Under the pieces are notes generated by a model that was not told the origin of the DNA, did no database searches, and was given only the letters and a program-made list of their open reading frames with translations. 33,450 nucleotides of DNA, taken from IMG/VR virus record IMGVR_UViG_3300046747_000461; one strand, given 5' to 3'. A program made the position numbers and the translations under genes. Source of the DNA: a virus. This document shows positions 8,284 to 33,450 of the stretch, in pieces (within the stretch, counting starts at the first letter, position 1; each line of letters starts with the position of its first letter).

Positions 8284-9633
8284 ATGAGTGACTGGGAAGT
8301 AGTTAAAAGGCCGCAAAAAGAAAATGTATGGGAGGTGGCCAGCCAACCTGACTCCTCTACAACTGGTGAAATTTCAAATAATTTTGATTATTCTCGCGGT
8401 CAAAATGAAGCGATGAACCCATTCGCCGCTGCTTTAGCTAAGCATACCGTTAAGCATCCCATGTTATCTAAAGGAATTAGAGGGTTAGCTGAATATGCAG
8501 CCCCAGTTAATGAGTTTATCGAAAGTGCTTTACTACCTGATATCTCTCGTGGATTTTTACAGGGCATAGGAAACACCGGAATATCTATAGCCAATATGCC
8601 TGCCTCTCTAATTGATAAGTTAACGGGCTTAAATACAAAGACTCCTCATTTAGATTTAAGCGCTTATTCTTCTGGAAGACCCGGGGCAGAATATGCGGCT
8701 GATGTAGGTGAATTTGGAGGAAAATTAATTCCTGGGATGGGTTTAGTTGGTGCTTTAAATAAATTAGGAAGGCCTGGTGGATATGCTGGAATAGGATCGG
8801 ATATATTGAAAGGGGCCGGAGCTGGATATGCATTGGGAGAGGATGAAGAAGGAAATCGTGGGCTAGCGTCTGCTTTTGGAGGAATTTTAGGTGGGATTCA
8901 AGGCGTATCTAGCAAGGCCATCGCCAATCGTTTTTCTAAAGATAGATCTAATATTAAAACAAAATATAATAAAACATACGAAAATATTCTAAGCCAGGGA
9001 GAAAAGGCTGGAGTTAAAAGAGTTCCAGTTCCAGAAGAGCATAATTTGGGATATATTTTGAGAGGCGCAGATAGAAAAATGACTATTCCAATAGAAAAAT
9101 ATTTTCAACATCCAACATTAAGGAATGCTCAATCTGCCCAAAGCGCGGCAGGAAAAATTGCTTCAAAAATAGAGCGATCCGCTAGAAATAGGCCTGAAGG
9201 TTTCTTGGATGTTGAATCAAAGGCAATTGATGCTTCGAAAGATCTCCAAAGAAAAATTAGGTCTGGAATAGTTGATCAATTAGATAAAAGCAGTAAACCA
9301 GCCTTAGGAAAAAAATATTTAAAGACCACAGAAGGTTATGGTCGCGATGTTGTGCCATACGATAATTCCGCTGCCTATGATTATTCTGATGCACTTAAAA
9401 TTTTTAAAAAAAGCAAACATGGCAAACTTGGTCCTGCTGAAAAAAAACTTGTAGATTCATTGAGGGGTGATGTAGAGTTTCAGGCAGCATATGGTAACTT
9501 ATACCCAGAATTAGGAATAAACAAATTTACTCGAAATCTTACATTACCACGGGCGGTTGGCCTAGGAATTACAGGAGGTGCTGGATATGCTGGAAGACAC
9601 GAATTAAAGGATTTTCTAAAGAGGAATTTTTAA
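8284..9633 (+). CDS. Internal virion/ejection protein candidate
   Basis: 449 aa, translationally coupled (TAAATG), with Gly-rich segments. It is the last + strand gene before antisense island 1. Confidence 0.5.
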   Translation: MSDWEVVKRPQKENVWEVASQPDSSTTGEISNNFDYSRGQNEAMNPFAAALAKHTVKHPMLSKGIRGLAEYAAPVNEFIESALLPDISRGFLQGIGNTGISIANMPASLIDKLTGLNTKTPHLDLSAYSSGRPGAEYAADVGEFGGKLIPGMGLVGALNKLGRPGGYAGIGSDILKGAGAGYALGEDEEGNRGLASAFGGILGGIQGVSSKAIANRFSKDRSNIKTKYNKTYENILSQGEKAGVKRVPVPEEHNLGYILRGADRKMTIPIEKYFQHPTLRNAQSAQSAAGKIASKIERSARNRPEGFLDVESKAIDASKDLQRKIRSGIVDQLDKSSKPALGKKYLKTTEGYGRDVVPYDNSAAYDYSDALKIFKKSKHGKLGPAEKKLVDSLRGDVEFQAAYGNLYPELGINKFTRNLTLPRAVGLGITGGAGYAGRHELKDFLKRNF

Positions 9634-9764
9634 TCAAGGTCATCTAATATAATATCTTCATACGATGCCCTATCATCAATACTATTATCCCAAATATCTT
9701 GTATTATACAACCTATAATCCACCCGATGAATGCGCAAACTATAACTATTATAATATCAAACAT
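9630..9764 (-). CDS. 44-aa membrane mini-protein (TM helix plus acidic tail)
   Basis: Below the ORF-track size cutoff. MFDIIIVIVCAFIGWIIGCIIQDIWDNSIDDRASYEDIILDDLD. RBS GGAGGAG. It shares an identical 19-nt 5' region with the next gene upstream. Confidence 0.55.
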   Translation of the reverse strand: MFDIIIVIVCAFIGWIIGCIIQDIWDNSIDDRASYEDIILDDLD

Positions 9765-9780
9765 ATCTATCTCCTCCTAC
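9762..9780 (-). repeat. 19-nt repeated translation-initiation region (copy 1; copy 2 at 10032..10050)
   Basis: catatctatctcctcctac is identical at both sites. On the minus strand it reads GTAGGAGGAGATAGATATG. Confidence 0.9.
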
Positions 9781-9788
9781 ATTTGTTG

Positions 9789-10034
9789 TTAGAAGTGCCA
9801 ACCAAACTTTTTTAATATAAAAGGCAAGAATATTGCCGCTACTAAAATCAATCCTAATTCTGTTCCTAAGAAAATCTTTAACTCTTTTTCTAGTACGTAT
9901 AAATCGGATTGTGTTACTACACCATCAAAAGATGCATTCAACGATTTTACTGCCGTAGATGCTTGAGATTCAGTATACCCATTCTCTAAATATTCTTTAT
10001 AAACCTTTAATGTATCTATGTGTGCTTGTGCCAT
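9789..10034 (-). CDS. Tail-anchored small membrane protein, DUF1640-like family paralog A
   Basis: 81 aa. N-terminus IDTLKVYKEYLENGYTESQA. C-terminal TM helix LGLILVAAIFLPFIL. RBS GGAGGAG. Confidence 0.75.
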   Translation of the reverse strand: MAQAHIDTLKVYKEYLENGYTESQASTAVKSLNASFDGVVTQSDLYVLEKELKIFLGTELGLILVAAIFLPFILKKFGWHF

Positions 10035-10046
10035 ATCTATCTCCTC

Positions 10047-10346
10047 CTACCTCTTGATAAAATTATGAAAGTCATTATCCAATTTATCAACGCGTGCCTC
10101 TAATGATGACATTTTTATTTTCACTTCTGTTACATCAATAGATAAATCCCACACTTTATATAAGGTAAAACTTCCAATCGATACAATTATAAAACCAAAT
10201 ATAGTTATTAATCTATTACTAGCAAAATCTTTCAATATCCTATTGAAGGAATTATCAAAAGATTTAACCTGAGCATGTGCTTGCTCATGACTAAATCCGC
10301 CCTCTATTAGGTTCTCATATACCTGTAGAGTGTCTAACTGCGCCAT
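10047..10346 (-). CDS. Small membrane protein, DUF1640-like family paralog B
   Basis: 99 aa. LDTLQVYENLIEGGFSHEQA. Central TM helix LITIFGFIIVSIGSFTLY followed by a coiled-coil tail. RBS AGGAG. Confidence 0.75.
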   Translation of the reverse strand: MAQLDTLQVYENLIEGGFSHEQAHAQVKSFDNSFNRILKDFASNRLITIFGFIIVSIGSFTLYKVWDLSIDVTEVKIKMSSLEARVDKLDNDFHNFIKR

Positions 10347-10358
10347 ACCTATTTACTC

Positions 10359-10583
10359 CTATTTTTTATCTATTGTATGAAATTTCTCGTGTAGTTCATT
10401 AAACTTTTCGTTTACCCATTCTCTTAATTCAAGTATGGATATTTTTAAATCAGCTTTAGTTGCTGAGTCATATATTTCAGAATTTGATGCTCTGTAAAAC
10501 AGCTTTATTTCTTCAATGGCTTGTTCTTCGCTGCGCCCTTTGCCTCGCAAAGCCATATATTTGTCTATTTCTGTCGTACTCAT
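10359..10583 (-). CDS. Soluble divergent member of the same family (paralog C)
   Basis: 74 aa from ATG 10583, preceded by AGGAGG. The ORF-track start at 10598 lies inside that RBS. IDKYMALRGKGRSEEQA aligns with the family motif. No TM helix. Confidence 0.65.
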   Translation of the reverse strand: MSTTEIDKYMALRGKGRSEEQAIEEIKLFYRASNSEIYDSATKADLKISILELREWVNEKFNELHEKFHTIDKK

Positions 10584-10607
10584 AAATCCTCCTATCATAT
10601 TAATGTC

Positions 10608-10637
10608 ACAATATCACACAAACAAGACCTATGTCAA
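10608..10637 (-). promoter_or_regulatory. Sigma70-like promoter for antisense island 1
   Basis: On the minus strand: TTGACA (10637..10632), a 16-nt spacer, then TGtGATATT (extended -10, 10615..10610). Alternative -10 TATTGT with an 18-nt spacer. Confidence 0.5.
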
Positions 10638-10711: not shown

Positions 10712-12835
10712 ATGCCATTAGATCCGCGTTATATCACTACCAATACCCTAGAGCCAGTCTTTCTAGATAAGAAAACCGCGGCCCCGTTAGCGGGGGGTAT
10801 AGTTACCTTTTTTAAAGATAACAACAGAGTATTCCCTAAATTAGTTTATGAACTAACCGGCGCTCCTCCTTACTCGGGTCCGGCTCCTAATTTTACTCCA
10901 TTGCCAAATCCAATTATTTTGAGCTCTAAGGGGACCATTCAAGATGCAGCGGGCAATAACGTGGCCCTTTATTATTTCCCTTATGACGCAAATGGAGACC
11001 AGGAACTTTATTACGTTACTGTGACTGATCAGTTTGGCGTAGAGCAATTTACGCGTGAGGCATGGCCATTTATAGCTAATCCAGCATCCTCGGTCTCTGG
11101 TCAAGCCTCCATAAACAATGAACTTACAAACCCTCAGTTTTCGCAAGTTTTGTTTGATGATACCACTGGATTGGTTCTGGCTATCCCCGGAGCTATTAAT
11201 GTAACATTCGAGATTGCGCCAGGGTGGTCAATTAATGTAGTAACCTCGGGAGCGGCAACAGTAAATATCGCTAGGAATCCTATTGCCGGAGTAACTGCAT
11301 ATCCACATAATCCGCCCTATACATTGACGGTCACTCCTGGGGCCAATATTGTTAGTTTATCGTTATTCCAACGGCTATTAGGAAACCCAGATATATGGAG
11401 CCCGGCGGTAGGCGCCACTAATGGATGGATAGCGGGAACTATTTTATTGGCGCCCAATAGCAACCTAACAATGTCTTACAGAACTTCTGCTGGGGTTCCA
11501 ATTTCTCAAGATATTTTGGTAGCCAATAATCTAACAGCTAGTTATGCAGAGTTTTCTAATACTATACAATTGGCGCCTGCGGCTAATCCAAACCTTCCTC
11601 CCAGCGGATACGTGGATATAGTATTAACACTTCCGACAAATATTCCAACCACATTTAGCAATATTCAGGTTGTTGGTCTTGAAAGAAATATTTCAAATAT
11701 CGTTTACGATGAAACAACTATTAATCGCCAAATGGATCAGATGTTCAATTATTATTTTCCATTTCTTAAACAAAAACCAATACCTTCGTATCTCATTGGT
11801 TGGGATTTCAATTTAAATCCAGCTCAGGCCTTAGGTGAAACTGTGGCCGCCAGTGCCGCAGGCGCTAACACCTCGCGTTATGTTTGGGATCAAACAATTG
11901 TTTTCCAAAGCGCAAATCTTGGCCCAGCAATTTCTCGTGCACCTAGTGGCTCCATAAGAATAACTGCTACTAATACTACGCAATTTGCATTAATTCAATA
12001 TCTTGGACAAAATGATGCTAGAAAAATATTAGCAGAACGATTTGCTATGAATATAGCCGCTAAAACAAGTGTATTAGCCGGAGTTTTATCAACAGTCGAA
12101 GTATATTATACGACCGGTGCAGTTCTTCCCAGTTGTGGTGCAAATAACAGTATAGTAGCTACCCTGGATGCTACCGGTAAGCCTGCCACATTTAATTTAG
12201 CAAGCGGTCAGCCATGGAGCATAGTACCCAGAAGCGGTTTTGGGGACGCAAGGTTTACTGTCCTTCCTGCCGCAGCTCAACACCATAATGATTATAATCT
12301 TAATGCTTGGAATGCCACTCAACTCCCTGACATATCTAACGCAACATATTTAGCTGTGATTGTTGGATTTGCTCAATTACCTGCCGGAGAAACAATCGAT
12401 ATTGATTCTATTTCTCTCATGCAAGGTGATATAGCAACAAGACCGGCTCCCACAAATGGGGGAGAAACATTAAGAAGATGTCAAAGATTTTACGAAAAAT
12501 CATTTAACCAAGGAATTGTTCCGGCATCCAACGCTGGATTGAACAGCGGTGCTTATAATTTCCCCTCTACTATTGCGGGCGTTGTATTTACCATTAGTGG
12601 ATTTATACCTTTCAAGGTAACAAAGTTTGATGCAACTCCATCAATTGTAACATTTACACCCGTGGGAGCAGGGTTTCAAATGTATAACGTCACCATTGCG
12701 CTTGCAATGACAAATACACTATTCGACAGAGTAGGGGACAACGGATTTACTGTTCACTACAACGGGAGCGCAGGTACTAATTTCGGAAACATCATGGCTA
12801 TTAATTGGACAGCGGATGATCGCTTAGGAAGATAA
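10712..12835 (+). CDS. Tail fibre / receptor-binding protein 1
   Basis: 707 aa, Asn/Thr/Ala/Gly-rich and beta-rich. The C-terminal ~140 aa (ETLRRCQRFYEKSFNQG...PSIVTFTP...YNVT) is homologous by eye to the C-terminus of the 13689..15065 product. Internal repeated units are visible. Confidence 0.7.
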   Translation: MPLDPRYITTNTLEPVFLDKKTAAPLAGGIVTFFKDNNRVFPKLVYELTGAPPYSGPAPNFTPLPNPIILSSKGTIQDAAGNNVALYYFPYDANGDQELYYVTVTDQFGVEQFTREAWPFIANPASSVSGQASINNELTNPQFSQVLFDDTTGLVLAIPGAINVTFEIAPGWSINVVTSGAATVNIARNPIAGVTAYPHNPPYTLTVTPGANIVSLSLFQRLLGNPDIWSPAVGATNGWIAGTILLAPNSNLTMSYRTSAGVPISQDILVANNLTASYAEFSNTIQLAPAANPNLPPSGYVDIVLTLPTNIPTTFSNIQVVGLERNISNIVYDETTINRQMDQMFNYYFPFLKQKPIPSYLIGWDFNLNPAQALGETVAASAAGANTSRYVWDQTIVFQSANLGPAISRAPSGSIRITATNTTQFALIQYLGQNDARKILAERFAMNIAAKTSVLAGVLSTVEVYYTTGAVLPSCGANNSIVATLDATGKPATFNLASGQPWSIVPRSGFGDARFTVLPAAAQHHNDYNLNAWNATQLPDISNATYLAVIVGFAQLPAGETIDIDSISLMQGDIATRPAPTNGGETLRRCQRFYEKSFNQGIVPASNAGLNSGAYNFPSTIAGVVFTISGFIPFKVTKFDATPSIVTFTPVGAGFQMYNVTIALAMTNTLFDRVGDNGFTVHYNGSAGTNFGNIMAINWTADDRLGR

Positions 12836-13688: not shown

Positions 13689-15065
13689 ATGGCCGTTGTT
13701 AATGCACTTAATCTACATTTCTTCCCAAATCAACTTATCTATTCGACTGGTGCTAATTCATTAGGCGGTATCAATACCATCAATAATGGCGTACTTATTA
13801 CTAGCCCTGCCGGTGTTCCAAGTATTAGCACTGTAATTCCATTGGCAACGCAGGCGAATATTACACAAGTTGGGGTATTAACCGCAGGAACCTGGAATGC
13901 TAATATTGTTCCTCCTGCCTTTGGTGGAACGGGTGCCAATAACGGCGTAAACGTACTAAGTTTAGCTGGTAACTTATCTACTGCGGGCATATTTCCTGCC
14001 AATTTTAATTTTACCGCTGCCACGGATGTTATTTTTCCGATTGCTGGAACGCTTGCCACTATCCCAGGATTTGCACCAGGCGGTAATCTTATTGTTAATG
14101 GTGACTTTCAGGTATGGCAAAGAGGGGCGGGTGGTGCCGCTGTTATTGCCGTTGGCGCAGCCTTGAATGCCTATACTGCTGATCGATGGCAGCTAGCTAC
14201 AAATGCTAATCAAGCAAGTACCGCTACTCAAGCTCCGGGCCCAACTTCGGGATCCTTTTTAGCTAAAATTCAAAGAAACGCCGGTCAAACCGGGGTGGTT
14301 GGAAACATTGTTTTTGCATCATCACTTACTCGGGATATGTGTGTAGGTGCCGCCGGAAACCCTCTTACTATTAGCTTTAAGGCCTCAGCAGGCGCTGATT
14401 TTTCCGGTTTAGCTTCGCAGATTCTGGTTAGGGTAATAACAGGGACTCAAGCCAATGATATTTCTGTTTTGAGCGGCTTCACTGCACAAACAAACGTGAT
14501 AAACCAGCTCGTGACAATAACGCCAGCATTAGCCTCTTATTCACTTTCTTGCCCTGCGATTCCGGCTAATATTACTGCATTAGCTGTCACATTTGGCTGG
14601 TTGCCAGTTGGAGTAGCGGCTGCGGATGATAGCTTTTCAATAACTGATGTTCAACTTGAGATAAGTACATTTGCAACACCTTTTCAAAGATTTTCATTTT
14701 TTGATACATGGACAAAGTGCCAACGTTTTTATCAAAAGACATTTAATTATGGAACCGCACCAGTTCAAAATGTTGGGATAAATACTGGAGAAATACAAGG
14801 TCCAATACATTCGCCAGGTGCTACAAATAATTATATGGGCTTTAATATGTTTCCTCAAATGCGTATAAACCCAGCCATTGTCACTTTTAGTCCGGGTGCG
14901 GCATCCGCTGAAGTTTTCAATGTAACCGGTGCTGTCGCACACACATTAACTAGCGTTTCAAATGTTACGCCGCATTCGATTAGAATAAATAGTCAAGGGA
15001 ATGCTGCAGGTACTGTGGTTCAAGTTCAAGGACTTCATTTGACATTATCAGCGGACGTTACTTAA
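13689..15065 (+). CDS. Tail fibre / receptor-binding protein 2
   Basis: 458 aa. Contains GTWNANIVPPAFGGTGANNG (a common fibre motif), NGDFQVWQRG...YTADRWQL, and a C-terminal CQRFYQKTFNYG...PAIVTFSP...FNVT domain paralogous to RBP1. Confidence 0.7.
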   Translation: MAVVNALNLHFFPNQLIYSTGANSLGGINTINNGVLITSPAGVPSISTVIPLATQANITQVGVLTAGTWNANIVPPAFGGTGANNGVNVLSLAGNLSTAGIFPANFNFTAATDVIFPIAGTLATIPGFAPGGNLIVNGDFQVWQRGAGGAAVIAVGAALNAYTADRWQLATNANQASTATQAPGPTSGSFLAKIQRNAGQTGVVGNIVFASSLTRDMCVGAAGNPLTISFKASAGADFSGLASQILVRVITGTQANDISVLSGFTAQTNVINQLVTITPALASYSLSCPAIPANITALAVTFGWLPVGVAAADDSFSITDVQLEISTFATPFQRFSFFDTWTKCQRFYQKTFNYGTAPVQNVGINTGEIQGPIHSPGATNNYMGFNMFPQMRINPAIVTFSPGAASAEVFNVTGAVAHTLTSVSNVTPHSIRINSQGNAAGTVVQVQGLHLTLSADVT

Positions 15066-15778
15066 TGCAGTATCCCGATGATAAAGATTTATTTAACTTA
15101 GACATCGGCAATTTAGATATTGGCCAAGGACAGCAAGAGGAGCCGGATCAAGAAGAGGATGGGAACTATGACTCCTCTCAACTGTTGGACGCCATGATAC
15201 AGTCTTTCATGCAACAAAGAAACCCAGAACAGCAACAAAACAATTATTTTTCACAACTTCTTAGACAGCAATCCCCAGAGCAAGAAGGTGAATATACACC
15301 TCAATTAGGACAGGGATTGGGAGGTGGTGGCGGCGGTTTAATGAACGTATTACGTCAAAGAGAATCCGGGGGTAATTATGGCATTCAAAATACCTTAGGT
15401 TATGCCGGAGCTTATCAGTTTGGCGCTAAAGCATTAGAAGATACAGGACTCCTCAGACCAGGCGCAGGACGTCTCGGAAACAAAGGTTTGAATAATGAAA
15501 ATAACTGGACAATTCCTGGTGGCAAGCGAGCGTTTCTCGCTAGCCCAGAACTTCAAGACATGGCCATGCAACGCTTAATGGAGCGCAATAAAGACACAAT
15601 GACACGCATGGGACTTATTAACGAAGCCACACCGCCAGGTGTTATAAATGGATTGTTAGCGGCCGCACATATTGCAGGTCCCGGTGGCGCTAAAAAACTG
15701 ATGCAAGGGAGAAATCCCAGAGATGCCTATGGCACTGGAGCCGCTGAATATTTTCGTTTAGGAATGCAATCCGAGTAG
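15065..15778 (+). CDS. Virion-associated peptidoglycan hydrolase (lytic transglycosylase-like) candidate
   Basis: 237 aa. A Gln-rich and poly-Gly N-terminal part is followed by RESGGNYGIQNTLGYAGAYQFG, a motif I associate with lysozyme/transglycosylase domains of phage tail and ejection proteins. Confidence 0.55.
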   Translation: MQYPDDKDLFNLDIGNLDIGQGQQEEPDQEEDGNYDSSQLLDAMIQSFMQQRNPEQQQNNYFSQLLRQQSPEQEGEYTPQLGQGLGGGGGGLMNVLRQRESGGNYGIQNTLGYAGAYQFGAKALEDTGLLRPGAGRLGNKGLNNENNWTIPGGKRAFLASPELQDMAMQRLMERNKDTMTRMGLINEATPPGVINGLLAAAHIAGPGGAKKLMQGRNPRDAYGTGAAEYFRLGMQSE

Positions 15779-15788
15779 GAGAATTGAA

Positions 15789-15941
15789 ATGCCATTAAAA
15801 TCGAAAGCACAACAACGTTATTTATTCGCAAAACATCCTGAGATAGCTAAAGAGTTTGCAGATAAAACGAAAAATATTAAAAGTCTACCAGAGCACGTAA
15901 AGAAAAAAGGTAAAGCTAAAGCAAAGAAAAAAAGTAAGTGA
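15789..15941 (+). CDS. 50-aa Lys-rich protein (KSKAQQRYLFA motif)
   Basis: Below the ORF-track cutoff. MPLKSKAQQRYLFAKHPEIAKEF...KKKGKAKAKKKSK. The KSKAQ-R motif recurs in small phage proteins (from memory). Confidence 0.45.
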   Translation: MPLKSKAQQRYLFAKHPEIAKEFADKTKNIKSLPEHVKKKGKAKAKKKSK

Positions 15942-15943
15942 AA

Positions 15944-16243
15944 TTATTTTTTATTTGCTCTTAGAATATCTATCAAATCCTCTTTAATCTCTTTCATTAC
16001 ATTTGAACAAATTGCTATATCTTTAGAAATACAATGAAGCTGATAAAAAATGAAAAGATATTCTGCAATTATTAAAACGAATATAATACATATTTTTTTG
16101 TTCACAGACATTTCTTTTTTGAATGCTTTTGTTTTAGTTATAAAAGAATTAGCTATCTTATAAGTTTTATTTGCTGCATCTTCTTTTCTATACCCTTGTT
16201 TAACAAATTCTGTATATGTTTTTAATGTATCAATATGCATCAT
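15944..16243 (-). CDS. Small membrane protein, DUF1640-like family paralog D
   Basis: 99 aa. IDTLKTYTEFVKQGYRKEDA. Central TM helix ICIIFVLIIAEYLFIFY followed by a helical tail. Very AT-rich. Confidence 0.7.
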   Translation of the reverse strand: MMHIDTLKTYTEFVKQGYRKEDAANKTYKIANSFITKTKAFKKEMSVNKKICIIFVLIIAEYLFIFYQLHCISKDIAICSNVMKEIKEDLIDILRANKK

Positions 16244-16264: not shown

Positions 16265-16597
16265 TTATTTTGCAAAAAACAATGTTATTAATCGAATGTA
16301 GTGGTCTACTACAGGTATTAGCAGTATTGCGCCAACACCAAAGACTGCCCATCGTAACCCTTTAAATTCTTGTTTAAGAATTGTAAATTCTTGTCTTATT
16401 ACGTTCATTTCTTGATGGAAATATTCTTTTGTAACTAAGGTATCAATCGTGGCTTTGAAGCTGTCTTTTGTTACTAGATTATCTATGGTTAAATTATGAG
16501 ATCTGGCAGCACTTTCGGCTAGAAAAATCGCTTGGTCTTCAGTATATCCGCTGGATAAGGCATGTTTGTATTCATATAGTGTATCAACATAACTCAT
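16265..16597 (-). CDS. Tail-anchored membrane protein, DUF1640-like family paralog E
   Basis: 110 aa. VDTLYEYKHALSSGYTEDQA, a coiled-coil middle, and a C-terminal TM helix WAVFGVGAILLIPVV. RBS AGGAGA. This is the closest match to my recollection of the DUF1640 architecture. Confidence 0.75.
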   Translation of the reverse strand: MSYVDTLYEYKHALSSGYTEDQAIFLAESAARSHNLTIDNLVTKDSFKATIDTLVTKEYFHQEMNVIRQEFTILKQEFKGLRWAVFGVGAILLIPVVDHYIRLITLFFAK

Positions 16598-17738: not shown

Positions 17739-17912
17739 ATGACTATGTTAAAGGCAGAACTTAAGGCAAGGATTGAATTTCTTTCACAATCTTTAGCTCA
17801 ATCTCAGGCTAACCATAATGCGATTGTTGGTAGACTAGAAGAAGCGAAATTTCTTCTTGATACTTTAGAAAAAAAAGAAAAAGAAGTAGCGGAAGTAGTT
17901 GACCACACTTAA
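17739..17912 (+). CDS. 57-aa coiled-coil protein (hypothetical)
   Basis: Below the ORF-track cutoff. MTMLKAELKARIEFLSQSLAQSQANHNAIVGRLEEAKFLLDTLEKKEKEVAEVVDHT. Overlaps the RusA start. Confidence 0.4.
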   Translation: MTMLKAELKARIEFLSQSLAQSQANHNAIVGRLEEAKFLLDTLEKKEKEVAEVVDHT

Positions 17913-18258
17913 ATTCAAAGTACCTTGGCCTCCTTCATCTAACATATATTGGCGTCACTACAAGGGTAGAACGCTGATATCGAGGGAAGCTAAGGCCTAT
18001 CGAAATACAATCCTACAATTATCCCATTCCATCAAGCCTAAAACGCCGTTTATTGGGCGGGTTGGCATAACCATAGATGTTTACCCTCCAGACAAAAGAA
18101 AACGCGATATAGACAATCTATTGAAGATTTTGATTGATTCCTTGCAAGCGGCAGGGTACTACTATAATGATTGTCAGATAGACAAAATTGTCATCGAACG
18201 GAAACCATTGATAATCAAAGGGGGAGAGCTCTTTCTAGAGCTAACAGAACTTGGTTAG
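17899..18258 (+). CDS. rusA: RusA-family Holliday junction resolvase
   Basis: 119 aa, TTG start. PPSSNIYWRH..GR...S.EAKAYR, DIDNLLKILIDSLQAAGYYYNDCQI matches the RusA catalytic-Asp region as I recall it. Confidence 0.8.
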   Translation: MTTLKFKVPWPPSSNIYWRHYKGRTLISREAKAYRNTILQLSHSIKPKTPFIGRVGITIDVYPPDKRKRDIDNLLKILIDSLQAAGYYYNDCQIDKIVIERKPLIIKGGELFLELTELG

Positions 18259-18266
18259 GGGAGGCT

Positions 18267-18749
18267 ATGATAGATCACACCCAATTAAGAGAGTTAGTTA
18301 TAATGCCTGCTTTGAAGGGCGTTAACCTCTATTCCCCAGAAGCAGAAGAAGTCCTAATAGCAATTGCTGCCCAAGAGGGCAATGACGGATATTATTTAAA
18401 ACAAACCATCGATAATGACTCAGCTTTAGGCATATTCCAAATGCGGCCTGAGACACATGAATATCTTTGGGATACGGTCTTCTTAGCCGACCATCATTTG
18501 GGCTTTAAAGCTATTACTAGCCTCAATTATACACTTCGTCCATCAGCGGAAGTTATGGTCTATAATTTGAGATATGCAGCCGTTATGGCACGTATTTTTT
18601 GGTTGCGCATTAAGGAGCCATTCCCAGCCATAGATGACTTGGAGGGTATCTGGAACCTTTATAAGCGCCATTGGACCACTTTGTCAGGGAAAGCCACTAA
18701 ACAGGAGTTTATGGCGAATTACAAACGTTATGTAAAGGGAGATATTTAG
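18267..18749 (+). CDS. Endolysin candidate (SLT-like lytic transglycosylase)
   Basis: 160 aa from ATG 18267, preceded by GGGGAGG. The ORF-track start at 18171 overlaps rusA. AAQEGNDGYY...ALGIFQM resembles the SLT E...GxxQ motif. Confidence 0.5.
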   Translation: MIDHTQLRELVIMPALKGVNLYSPEAEEVLIAIAAQEGNDGYYLKQTIDNDSALGIFQMRPETHEYLWDTVFLADHHLGFKAITSLNYTLRPSAEVMVYNLRYAAVMARIFWLRIKEPFPAIDDLEGIWNLYKRHWTTLSGKATKQEFMANYKRYVKGDI

Positions 18750-18750
18750 C

Positions 18751-18936
18751 ATGTACGGTTCACACAATTCATCAAAAGGTAGCTCTAAGAAAGTATCTGG
18801 AAAGAGCCATGGAATTGAAATGCATGAGGGTCATAAACACCATTCCGGTTCAAGAATGAGTAGATCTTTTACTCGCGTAGAACACGATCCTCTTCATTCT
18901 CATCATAAAGGCAAGCCCTCTGGTTGCATGGAATAA
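18751..18936 (+). CDS. His-rich 61-aa protein
   Basis: RBS GGGAGA. 10 His in 61 aa (HEGHKHH, HDPLHSHH). Shares GKSHG with the next ORF. Confidence 0.55.
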   Translation: MYGSHNSSKGSSKKVSGKSHGIEMHEGHKHHSGSRMSRSFTRVEHDPLHSHHKGKPSGCME

Positions 18937-18948
18937 GGAGCTTAAATC

Positions 18949-19125
18949 ATGTCTATGTATAAAAAACCTGGACACCAAGGCTATGAGGTTTATCACCCAG
19001 GCCCAGGCATTCCTACCATGGGATCTCCACAGCCAATGCACGATACCAATATGCGCATAGAATTACATATTGGGCATATGACTAAAGAAAAGACAGGCGG
19101 TAAGTCTCACGGAAAGAGATCTTAA
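18949..19125 (+). CDS. His/Pro/Gly-rich 58-aa protein
   Basis: Below the ORF-track cutoff. RBS AAGGAG 8 nt upstream. MSMYKKPGHQGYEVYHPGPG...TGGKSHGKRS. Confidence 0.5.
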   Translation: MSMYKKPGHQGYEVYHPGPGIPTMGSPQPMHDTNMRIELHIGHMTKEKTGGKSHGKRS

Positions 19126-19127
19126 TT

Positions 19128-19310
19128 ATGTCAATCATGAGCAAGTTATTGTGGGGGATGAAGTCTCCCTCCTTGATTCTGGTTCTGGGTCTTTGTGTTT
19201 TGATAGTCACGCTGAAAGTCATGGGACTAATAGGCGTGGCTCCAAAATCAATTGAACTGGCAGACGATATTATCAAGCCTGAAGCAGAGGAAAGAACTAC
19301 CCGAGAATAG
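19128..19310 (+). CDS. Small membrane protein (holin or spanin candidate)
   Basis: 60 aa, one TM helix (PSLILVLGLCVLIVTL) and a charged C-terminus. Last gene of the lysis cassette. Confidence 0.5.
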   Translation: MSIMSKLLWGMKSPSLILVLGLCVLIVTLKVMGLIGVAPKSIELADDIIKPEAEERTTRE

Positions 19311-19780: not shown

Positions 19781-20326
19781 TCACTCAAAGTAGTAGTATA
19801 ATCCAAGATTGTACATAAGAGCACAGCCCTGACGTATAGAATCTCTTCTAAACTTATTGTGCCAGACAGTTGAAGCTCTTACACCAAGCGTTGGAACCGG
19901 TCTAAACTCTATTCCGCCCATCACTCTGGGTAATACCTTTTGCACTTCTACAATAAACCCATTCTCAATAGTAGAAGTCATATGGCTTGCACCAATTCCG
20001 CCAATGAGGTTGACACTATCGATAATGGGACAAATGCCTAACAAGGAAGCGTGAAGGCCCTTAGAATCGATTCTATAACTGCCTCTTTGCTTTTTGTTGG
20101 TAAGATGTGCACCTATTTCTATTCCAACATTTTCGCCAACTAATACGCCAGTAGAAAACGTGAAGTGTGGTTGATGTCTTTTAGTGCCTAAATTTGCATT
20201 GGTTTTATGATCGTTAAATTTAAGGCTCTTTAAACCAGACTCTATTCCCATAAAGGGTTTTGGTTCTAGGCTTGCTATTTCCATAGTAGCAAAAGCCAAA
20301 GAAAATAAAATGATCTGCTTTAACAT
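19781..20326 (-). CDS. Outer-membrane beta-barrel protein (OmpX/Ail/Lom-like accessory gene)
   Basis: 181 aa. N-terminal signal-like MLKQIILFSLAFATMEIASL, alternating amphipathic beta-strand pattern, aromatic C-terminus LGLYYYFE. RBS GGAG. Confidence 0.65.
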   Translation of the reverse strand: MLKQIILFSLAFATMEIASLEPKPFMGIESGLKSLKFNDHKTNANLGTKRHQPHFTFSTGVLVGENVGIEIGAHLTNKKQRGSYRIDSKGLHASLLGICPIIDSVNLIGGIGASHMTSTIENGFIVEVQKVLPRVMGGIEFRPVPTLGVRASTVWHNKFRRDSIRQGCALMYNLGLYYYFE

Positions 20327-31969: not shown

Positions 31970-32184
31970 GCTTTGATGAAACAAAAATTAAAATGAATAT
32001 ATTCTCAATAGGATTAGGAAATGAGAAGTTTTATTGCAATTTAAGAAGTGGTGAATTCCAAAAGGAATTTGAATTTAAAAATGATTCTTGTTTTATTGAT
32101 TTTCTTTTAACAGTCGAAAGAAAAATCCGAGAGCTCAAGGAGGAGCACGAAAATGGCGAAACTAACGACGAAACAACGCAATAA
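31966..32184 (+). CDS. Hypothetical protein
   Basis: 72 aa, ATGA-coupled to the portal gene. Confidence 0.5.
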   Translation: MSFDETKIKMNIFSIGLGNEKFYCNLRSGEFQKEFEFKNDSCFIDFLLTVERKIRELKEEHENGETNDETTQ

Positions 32185-32407
32185 ATTGCCTAAGTCTGAA
32201 TTTGGAATGCCTGGTGAAAGAAAGTACCCCATAAATAATCCGGCTCATGCAAAAAACGCGAAAAGTAGAGCCTCCCAGATGGAGAAGGCAGGAAAGCTAT
32301 CTGAAAGTGCTAAGGCTAAGATAGATGCTAAGGCCAATAAGATGCTTCATGCTAAGAAAAAGAAAGTAGCTAAGCCTAAGTCTAAGGGTAAGACTGTTAC
32401 TGGTTAG
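32153..32407 (+). CDS. Small Lys-rich head-module protein (LP.SEF...RKYPI...H..NA motif)
   Basis: 84 aa, RBS AGGAGG. This motif occurs in a widespread small phage protein family found near head genes (from memory). Confidence 0.55.
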   Translation: MAKLTTKQRNKLPKSEFGMPGERKYPINNPAHAKNAKSRASQMEKAGKLSESAKAKIDAKANKMLHAKKKKVAKPKSKGKTVTG

Positions 32408-32408
32408 A

Positions 32409-32484
32409 TGGCTCCCCGAGACGGGCTCGAACCGCCGACCCAGTGATTAACAGTCACTTATTCTTCCAACTGAACTATCGGGGA
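32409..32484 (-). tRNA. tRNA-Asn (anticodon GUU) with encoded CCA
   Basis: Reverse complement TCCCCGA-TA-GTTC-AGTTGGAA-GAAT-A-AGTGA-CTGTTAA-TCACT-GGGTC-GGCGG-TTCGAGC-CCGTC-TCGGGGA-G-CCA. 76 nt with a 7-bp acceptor stem, anticodon loop CT-GTT-AA and a TTCGAGC T-loop. Confidence 0.92.
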
Positions 32485-32493
32485 TCTATTTTT

Positions 32494-32826
32494 TCAATAA
32501 CCTTCTGTTTGTTTATTTTTTAAGCTATCTACATTCGCTTCTAAAGTCTGGATTAACTTATCATATCTTCTAGCATCAATATAATGTTGAATCGTTGGAA
32601 TAATTGTAGTGGTAAAAATAGCTCCTCCTATAATAATCACAACCATAAATCTTGCATTAATTTGAGCCATCATTTTATCTTGCATTAACTGCATTTCTGG
32701 CCTTAATACTATTTCTTTATCTAATTCTGCAGCCAGTGCCAGTGATTCAGCTTGCAGGGTTGCCTGTTGCTCTGTAAAACCCGCTGCTAGATATTTTTTG
32801 TATTCAATTAATGTATCAATTCTCAT
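32494..32826 (-). CDS. Small membrane protein, DUF1640-like family paralog F
   Basis: 110 aa. IDTLIEYKKYLAAGFTEQQA. TM helix FMVVIIIGGAIFTTTIIP followed by a coiled-coil tail. RBS AGGAG. Its stop is 9 nt upstream of the tRNA 5' end on the same strand. Confidence 0.75.
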   Translation of the reverse strand: MRIDTLIEYKKYLAAGFTEQQATLQAESLALAAELDKEIVLRPEMQLMQDKMMAQINARFMVVIIIGGAIFTTTIIPTIQHYIDARRYDKLIQTLEANVDSLKNKQTEGY

Positions 32827-33323: not shown

Positions 33324-33450
33324 TTAGAACATGTTTTTAAAATTGCATTGCAATTGCAATTATTTCGTTTGCAATTGCAGAAATTGCACGATTTCTATGA
33401 AAACGTAGTATGAATCCTACGAAAATTGCATGAAAGTTGGAATATCGCTC
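33324..33450. repeat. Right copy of the exact 127-bp terminal direct repeat
   Basis: Identical to 1..127. The unique genome length is therefore 33,323 bp. Confidence 0.95.

Follow-up and report, generated by a model that had tools for sequence, protein, structure and literature searches.

The viral DNA IMGVR_UViG_3300046747_000461 of IMG/VR (33,450 nucleotides, nt; "the window" below means this whole stretch, and its coordinates are used throughout) carries a cassette of four small genes, A to D, on the minus strand of a P22-like phage genome, flanked on one side by the gene that corresponds in position to the last ejection-protein gene and on the other by the tail-fibre gene. Proteins A to C are very probably of the DUF1640/CCDC90-like kind, a membership that rests on transitive homology through intermediate sequences together with a characteristic neck motif, and three further paralogs, E, F and G, are encoded elsewhere in the same genome. 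The position of the cassette is equivalent to that of the sieA island of phage P22, and its genes are accessory and moron-like, forming antisense islands at module junctions that are reshuffled by recombination. Judged by analogy, superinfection exclusion, or interference with DNA entry, is tentatively put forward as the most likely role of these proteins.

The cassette consists of four tightly packed open reading frames (ORFs) in window positions 9630–10598, with gaps of 12 nt between A and B, 12 nt between B and C and 24 nt between C and D. The features of the cassette are as follows (aa, amino acids; TM, transmembrane; the E-values refer to the hidden Markov model, HMM, of foreign relatives described below):

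10610..10637, minus strand: candidate sigma-70-type promoter of the cassette, TTGACA-16 nt-TG-n-GATATT, a consensus match only (score 10/12 plus extended −10)
10359..10583, minus strand: A, 74 aa, a soluble, divergent family member (E = 3.9e-5 among 214 ORFs)
10047..10346, minus strand: B, 99 aa, a "B-type" member (E = 2e-15)
9789..10034, minus strand: C, 81 aa, a tail-anchored member (E = 1e-28)
9630..9764, minus strand: D, a 44-aa peptide with an N-terminal TM segment and an acidic tail, outside the family (E = 1.6)

An earlier note on this DNA, made from the sequence alone, had described four minus-strand ORFs of 74, 99, 81 and 44 aa, and all of them are present; its view of A as soluble, of B and C as single-TM proteins and of D as a TM peptide agrees with the distribution of hydrophobic segments. 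The start of the 74-aa protein A is placed at ATG 10583 because of the AGGAGG Shine-Dalgarno site that precedes it, whereas the upstream ATG at 10598 has none, and B, C and D are all preceded by TAGGAG(G) ribosome-binding sites. The TTGACA promoter that the cassette was said to possess stands as a near-consensus match (10637–10610); when the upstream 130 nt were shuffled 300 times, a single shuffle equalled its score.

The wider family was collected with a profile of the paralogs and a few relatives from word-based searches, which was run against 1.84 billion representative proteins. With a limit of E ≤ 1e-3 it comprised 318 cluster representatives, and of the 150 best-scoring ones listed nearly all were 64–156 aa long. 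A test HMM, built from 143 relatives after removal of all window-derived sequences and run on all 214 window ORFs of at least 35 aa, recovered exactly six of them, namely C, G, B, F, E and A (E = 1e-28 to 4e-5), with the next-best ORF at E = 0.47. So the claim of six diverged paralogs in this genome is upheld by sequences foreign to it. The three paralogs outside the cassette (island 1) lie in islands 2 and 3:

16265..16597, minus strand: F, 110 aa, a tail-anchored paralog and the first gene of island 2 (E = 3e-15; two neck motifs, LVTKDS and LVTKEY)
15944..16243, minus strand: E, 99 aa, a B-type paralog with a central TM segment and a C-terminal helix, the second gene of island 2 (E = 1e-10; aligns with the B-type subfamily)
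32494..32826, minus strand: G, 110 aa, with a central TM segment and a C-terminal helix, in island 3 (E = 6e-16)

Divergence among the paralogs is considerable. Pairwise BLASTP comparisons among B, C, E, F and G gave 22–36 bits, seven of the ten pairs falling at 33–36, and no significant nucleotide similarity was found among the paralogs, which agrees with the strong divergence that the earlier note had pointed out.

The link to the named family came mainly through the relatives. PF07798 (DUF1640/CCDC90-like) was matched by 66 of the 149 relatives at E ≤ 0.01, the best at E = 3.9e-9, no other Pfam family was matched by more than two of the 149, and phrog_17872, a group to which no function is assigned, was matched by 79 of the 149 members. 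Direct comparison of the window proteins with PF07798 gave 18.8 bits for B (E = 1.5e-3) and 14.8 bits for C (E = 0.027), both below the gathering score of 33.5 and both confined to profile positions 1–39, with 2–39 covered by B; A, E, F and G gave no direct match to this family. The top match of the family profile in the PDB was human CCDC90B (6h9m; E = 0.015), aligned on the head signature. With the monomer model of C, for which a trimer is expected, Foldseek placed 6h9m_A first of 350,542 PDB chains (probability 0.82, E = 0.27, TM-score 0.40), and in the viral library the top match was a 76-aa "DUF1640 domain-containing protein" of an uncultured phage (probability 0.97).

DUF1640 proteins are marked by a beta-layer where the stalk begins, of the form [aliphatic]-A-T-K-[polar]-[DE] (Hartmann et al., PMC4786415). 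This neck motif, in its strict form, was present in 79 of the 143 relatives against 0.47 expected from shuffles, at a median position of 37, and within the window it occurs in A (SATKAD), C (VVTQSD) and F (the two copies listed above); it is absent from B, E and G, as is usual in the B-type subfamily. A head followed by a beta-layer neck, a stalk and a TM anchor is also the plan that has been reported for MCUR1 (PMC6801532). With the PF07798 matches of the relatives, CCDC90B as the top PDB match and this motif, the resemblance to DUF1640/CCDC90-like proteins that the earlier note had proposed is substantiated, as is the accompanying statement that the family lacks an assigned bacterial or phage function, since none is described in the literature searched.

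Among the individual proteins, A is the weakest member. It retains the second head helix (GRSEEQA), the neck and a coiled-coil helix, with no hydrophobic segment; its hhalign match to the family profile had a probability of 88% and covered the second head helix and the neck ("G-x-[ST]-E-x-Q-A ... A-T-K-x-D-L"), and a word-based search for relatives outside this phage returned only the query proteins. C has the complete arrangement of head (HIDTLKVYKEYLENGYTESQA), neck, short stalk and C-terminal TM segment, and its AlphaFold2 (AF2) model (mean predicted local distance difference test, pLDDT, of 92; helices at 8–17, 22–35 and 42–76) shows a head of two short helices and, after a linker of six residues, a single long helix that continues into the membrane anchor. 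B combines the head with a DFASN motif, a central TM segment (approximately residues 46–68) and a 30-aa C-terminal helix on the opposite side of the membrane (AF2 pLDDT 78.5; helices at 6–15, 20–43 and 45–98). In both AF2 models, which are single-chain predictions, a long helix follows the neck position.

Two departures from this plan recur. In the B-type subfamily (B, E and, roughly, G) the neck is replaced by K-[DE]-F-A-S-N-K, and the central TM segment is followed by a helix of 13–34 residues; the subfamily alignment demonstrates that this departure is conserved outside this phage. A single predicted membrane-spanning segment is found at the C-terminus of C, F and 125 of 148 relatives, centrally in B, E and G, and not at all in A, so that the difference in its position between tail-anchored and central, which the earlier note had remarked on, is a real feature of the set. 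Soluble TM-less members also recur, being represented by A and by a 60-aa protein in the array of contig L104. Additionally, some relatives (P0100, P0151 and P0074) are tandem heads without a TM segment, with two heads in proteins of 67–79 aa, and one such relative of 362 aa has seven "G-Y-T-x-E-Q-A-L" repeats, so that the head may serve as a module in its own right.

D does not belong to this family. A search of 5.8 billion proteins for its homologues returned only the query proteins, its stop overlaps the end of the convergent 449-aa gene by 4 nt, and the 16 nt of its ribosome-binding region (9765–9780) are identical to those of C (10035–10050). It also contains an atypical lipobox-like sequence, IIGC (residues 16–19), with no basic n-region.

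The genes are under purifying selection. Three pairs of alleles (dS 0.8–2.3) had ratios of nonsynonymous to synonymous substitution rates (dN/dS) of 0.07, 0.07 and 0.08, the value for B against its 106-aa allele B' being 0.07. Values of this order indicate that the genes are real, and the maintained function that had been argued from divergence alone is in agreement with them.

Searches of 50,697 phage records with the DNA of the cassette and its flanks, and by tblastn with two family members, yielded no match. A canonical DUF1640-like member found by tblastn only the Liberibacter phages of SC1/SC2 type, with weak E-values, and in phage SC1 the DUF1640 gene stands just after the primase gene, a finding that is uninformative as to function. 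No meaningful matches were given by NCBIfam and PADLOC scans.

The window is a circularly permuted phage genome with a true size of approximately 33.3 kb. An exact 127-nt direct repeat at its ends (1–127 and 33324–33450) points to a circular or terminally redundant assembly, and contig L026 spans the circular junction and confirms the location of island 3. The genome is P22-like, with a P22-type portal, an Sf6-type small terminase (TerS), a large terminase (TerL), a major capsid protein and a gp10-like "Phage_stabilise" protein. Genes of about 88–105, 286, 366 and 449 aa occupy the positions of the P22 ejection-protein genes and are followed by the fibre gene. The immediate neighbours of the cassette are:

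8284..9633, plus strand: 449-aa gene in the last ejection-protein position (P22 gp16 position), by synteny with P22 and with 23 related loci; convergent with the cassette
10712..12835, plus strand: 707-aa tail-fibre gene in the P22 tailspike position (PHROG 4492, tail fiber, E = 2e-9 over residues 539–702); divergent from the cassette promoter

No family match was found for the 449-aa gene product. The fibre position in the 23 mapped relatives holds a gene of 501–743 aa, about 690–745 aa in most. In P22 itself, sieA is antisense and lies 22 bp after gene 16 with its own promoter, followed by orf59a, mnt, arc/ant and the tailspike gene 9. SieA was reported in 22 of 66 P22-like phages, always in that slot, beside hypervariable ejection-protein genes (PMC10883804).

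The content of this slot is subject to recombinational turnover. Three haplotypes were distinguished, carrying three to five family genes: A-B-C-D in the window and in contigs L023–L025; A-B'(106 aa)-C'-D in L113 and L114; and A-B-103 aa-B'-C', with D absent, in L003–L005. The base-by-base comparison (BLASTN) was made between one contig, L003, and the window. The fibre side of L003 is 99.9% identical to that of the window over 8.7 kb despite the different cassette, and its last two ejection-position genes are replaced, the encoded proteins being 34% and 22% identical to those of the window (22% between the 449-aa protein and the 411-aa allele). L113, with the A-B'-C'-D haplotype, has the same gene layout as the window on the fibre side. 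Co-variation of the family genes with the ejection-protein alleles, suggested by L003, is contradicted by L113 and L114; D alone tracks the allele, being present whenever the 449-aa form is present and absent with the 411-aa form.

The accessory status of the genes follows from a survey of the P22-like group at large, which took in 74 loci centred on the gp10-like gene, each with up to 10 kb of flanking sequence, and in which a family member was found near the structural genes in a single locus (L069), again antisense at the ejection/fibre junction. This junction is empty in most of the 23 mapped relatives. In L038 and L086 it holds an antisense EndoVII/HNH-like gene (15610–16239 and 15048–15671, respectively, both on the minus strand), and the encoded proteins of about 208 aa contain the motif "DHCH...G.VR.LLC..CN" and are probably homing endonucleases; the presence of such genes argues that the junction is an insertion hot spot. 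Placement of family members at the junction recurs in the independent lineages L069, L104 and L111. L104 contains a four-gene array, including a soluble member, that converges with a gene of 427 aa homologous to the 449-aa one; in L111 a family member is divergent from the fibre homologue.

Stalk length among the relatives changes by repeat insertion, as in the proteins of 116 and 134 aa encoded by L008 (3979–4329) and L009 (4090–4494). The inserted repeats, for example an 18-aa unit, contain the neck motif, and similar insertions were seen in P0096, P0060 and P0130, P0096 having about nine 11-residue repeats of the ATKxD type.

Island 3, made up of G and an AlpA-like gene, has the portal module on one side and the scaffold/capsid genes on the other. 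A complete tRNA-Asn gene (GTT; 32409–32484, minus strand) stands 9 nt downstream of G on the same strand, and it could be co-transcribed with G or could be a remnant of an attachment site. Small lysine-rich proteins are encoded at 15789–15941 and 32153–32407 (both plus strand), each convergent to a paralog island; the latter is a member of DUF6582 (E = 1.9e-6), and its homologue is conserved after the portal gene in relatives.

Downstream of the fibre genes, the candidate lysis region 17899–19310 (plus strand) begins with a RusA resolvase gene (17899–18258), followed by a phrog_3108 protein (18171–18749, plus strand) with a soluble lytic transglycosylase (SLT)-like "E...GIFQM" motif recognized by eye, two His-rich ORFs of 58–61 aa and a 60-aa TM protein (19128–19310). 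The part from 18171 to 19310 is a putative separate lysis module.

As to the host and lifestyle, the strong Shine-Dalgarno sites and an outer-membrane protein (OMP) beta-barrel gene suggest a Gram-negative host outside the Bacteroidetes. The beta-barrel protein of 181 aa (19781–20326, minus strand) matches PF13505 just under the cut-off (E = 3.9e-5); it is a Lom/Ail-like moron candidate and in itself hints at a Gram-negative host. A 2-kb contig of a "Bacteroidetes" metagenome-assembled genome, considered as a clue to the host, has the same upstream sequence as the phage group and is probably a phage fragment that was assigned to the wrong bin. Neither the window ORFs nor the Pfam annotations on record include an evident integrase, and the contigs with these genes, at least 37 in number, never exceed the phage in length, so that lysogeny is no more than a possibility. 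A relative represented by L001 (4626–5128 and 5813–7783) and L103 encodes a toxin-antitoxin pair (YefM/YoeB), a DnaB-type helicase, a primase zinc-ribbon protein and several sigma-70 region-4 proteins, which hints at a plasmid-like or non-integrating lifestyle of the phage group. Moreover, TerL is 786 aa long in L001 (11105–13465), L008 (5800–8160) and L012 (3801–6161) compared with 519 aa in the window, and a faint Pfam Intein_splicing match suggests an intein inside the large terminase of these three.

The mechanism proposed for the cassette starts from homology with CCDC90B and MCUR1, the head and stalk of which face the matrix. By this homology, the phage proteins would assemble as trimeric stalks that are anchored in the host inner membrane and hold the conserved head on the cytoplasmic side; B-type members would add a short periplasmic helix, and the soluble protein A might join or cap the trimers. 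Trimer formation, topology and the function in exclusion are all inferred: the proteins would act at the inner membrane by interfering with the DNA entry of competing or secondary phages, or with another step at the envelope, and would not mask an outer-membrane receptor. For superinfection exclusion, sieA is the better analogue because it lies in the same antisense slot after the last ejection-protein gene. A more elaborate and rather unlikely form of the proposal is that the six to eight mini-DUF1640 proteins (tail-anchored, bitopic and soluble), as a set that recombines fast, co-assemble as mixed trimers in the host inner membrane, which would provide combinatorial exclusion or anti-entry activity against the hypervariable conduit of ejection proteins in P22-like phages. 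If true, this would be the first function of prokaryotic MCUR1/CCDC90B relatives and a new type of superinfection-exclusion mechanism.

Several observations weigh against exclusion. A convincing sigma-70 promoter exists only at island 1: a consensus scan with shuffles found no convincing match at island 2, the match at island 3 (32883–32854) is marginal, since 21 of 300 shuffles reach its score, and a conserved sigma-70 promoter upstream of family genes was looked for and not found in other lineages. Sequence similarity to SieA was not detected by BLASTP (best E = 0.47 in a seven-sequence database), and six to eight copies per genome would be unusual for an exclusion function. The sieA-like slot is not specific to the family, for members stand at other sites: antisense between TerL and the portal gene in closer relatives, downstream of a RecT-like gene or in early operons of relatives, as a co-directional tandem pair just upstream of TerS (L008, L009 and L012), and two genes after an endolysin homologue in L112. 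The idea that the family belongs beside fibre genes is not supported by this distribution. Prophage expression cannot be assumed, given the lack of an integrase and of any contig longer than the phage, the charge bias is ambiguous for topology, and B' and C' are found with both the 449-aa and the 411-aa alleles. The missing SieA homology, the occurrence of the family beyond the slot, the high copy number and the unproven lysogeny are the reasons for keeping the exclusion proposal tentative.

A possible, though rather doubtful, alternative is that the proteins are scaffolds for host takeover or tethering, in which the cytoplasmic head of a protein expressed early, and not from a prophage, holds a host or phage factor at the inner membrane, as MCUR1 and CCDC90B scaffold their partners in mitochondria; sequestration, anti-defence or the organization of replication or assembly are possible effects. 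The head is the most conserved part, with a stalk and TM segment that vary and a stalk length that shifts by repeat insertion, and members lie in early operons beside RecE/RecT-like genes and upstream of TerS, as well as after the primase gene in SC1; the lack of evidence for lysogeny fits here, too. The MCUR1 head contacts MCU directly (PMC6801532), which is the precedent for such tethering. However, no partner has been identified, the up to eight diverged copies are given no reason, there is no match to known defence systems, and this reading does not account for the repeated occurrence of antisense members at the ejection/fibre junction.

Control of lysis, by holin/antiholin-like or spanin-like proteins that time or execute envelope disruption, appears improbable. 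The proteins are small with a single TM segment, B has a weak match to the Rz-like spanin phrog_739 (E = 0.002) over the TM segment and C-terminal helix, G reached E = 0.11 with a holin PHROG, and the pairing of soluble and membrane proteins is reminiscent of holin and antiholin. Lambdoid phages place lysis genes upstream of TerS, where the tandem pair of L008, L009 and L012 also stands in the same direction, and the member in L112 is near an endolysin homologue. At the same time, all six window members are antisense to the late operon, the conserved head, neck and stalk are not holin or spanin features, and the genes are absent from 73 of the 74 related structural loci, whereas lysis genes are essential. 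The holin/antiholin-type timing that the earlier note had kept as its alternative is made less likely by the separate putative lysis module after the fibre genes.

The earlier note had preferred a receptor-masking role matched to the adjacent fibres, after the manner of T5 Llp, and this now seems very improbable. Islands 1 and 2 do lie directly upstream of a fibre or fibre-associated gene, and D has its lipobox-like IIGC. The Llp protein of T5 is secreted as a lipoprotein and binds the receptor in the outer membrane; conserved, hydrophilic N-termini with no signal peptide or lipobox characterize A, B, C, E, F and G, and therefore these proteins cannot reach the outer membrane by known routes, so the analogy is not supported for A to C. 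The matching to fibres is not supported either, as the cassette content varies beside a fibre side that is nearly invariant where measured (L003) and the three haplotypes share the same fibre layout. Furthermore, many members are far from fibre genes, and D, which has no basic n-region, is missing in one of the haplotypes. Receptor masking is thus disfavoured both by the missing export signals and by the missing co-variation with the fibre gene.

An equally slender chance attaches to membrane-anchored regulators, for example of anti-sigma type. The B-type layout, with a short cytoplasmic helical domain, a TM segment and a short periplasmic tail, resembles that of single-pass anti-sigma factors, and L001 and L103 encode Sigma70_r4 proteins near the terminase genes. 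However, no sigma-like genes are recorded in the window, no similarity to Pfam anti-sigma families was found, and the DUF1640 homology predicts a trimeric stalk instead. Finally, that these are chance ORFs or decaying duplicates without function hardly deserves consideration: the ORFs are small, and for A and D no relatives were found outside this phage, but the low dN/dS, the strong Shine-Dalgarno sites, the 318 representatives and the pLDDT of 92 effectively refute this reading for B, C, E, F and G.

The DUF1640/CCDC90-like family has been conserved all the way from bacteria to human mitochondria (MCUR1 and CCDC90B). The phage and its host are uncultured and the family itself was already catalogued, as PF07798, as phrog_17872 and through the "DUF1640" labels that UniProt gives to phage proteins. 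What is new here is the small size of the proteins, the conservation of variants that are bitopic or soluble, the six to eight copies in a 33-kb genome, the turnover of haplotypes and the sieA-equivalent placement. These stripped-down, multi-copy DUF1640 proteins of 70–110 aa are kept under strong purifying selection and yet reside in recombination hot spots, including the sieA slot, and they make up a small, genetically tractable system in which the role of the head-neck-stalk-anchor module can be studied, along with a concrete hypothesis, an inner-membrane block to phage DNA entry.

Comparison with known systems places the phage proteins closest, in build, to the DUF1640/CCDC90-like proteins, with which they share, in the same order, a predicted head of two helices at the N-terminus, bearing the signature D-T-x(9-10)-G-[FY]-x-x-x-Q-A, a neck, a predicted coiled-coil stalk and a C-terminal TM segment; they do not belong to the SieA, Llp, holin or spanin families. 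From the DUF1640/CCDC90-like proteins they differ in being about half the size (70–135 aa against a 175-position domain), in the B-type with DFASN and a central TM segment, in the one TM-less member and in the presence of six to eight diverged copies per 33-kb genome. With Rz-type i-spanins and class III holins they share a single TM segment and a coiled-coil helix, together with the weak phrog_739 match of B; unlike these, they have a conserved DUF1640 head before the TM segment and no partner o-spanin, and their genes are antisense and accessory. T5 Llp and phi80 Cor are likewise small proteins encoded beside a receptor-binding gene, from which A to C are set apart by the lack of a signal peptide or lipobox and of co-variation with the fibre gene. 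With regard to P22 SieA, the likeness lies in the setting: the same slot and orientation, antisense with a promoter match of its own, convergent on the last ejection-protein gene and upstream of the tailspike or fibre gene, a location in the inner membrane (predicted for the cassette proteins) without a signal peptide, sporadic occurrence among relatives and the neighbourhood of hypervariable ejection-protein genes. SieA has three TM helices and the motif FxRYPxEAxxFNK, whereas the cassette proteins have at most one TM helix, lack this motif and belong to a family that is multi-copy and also occupies other genome positions.

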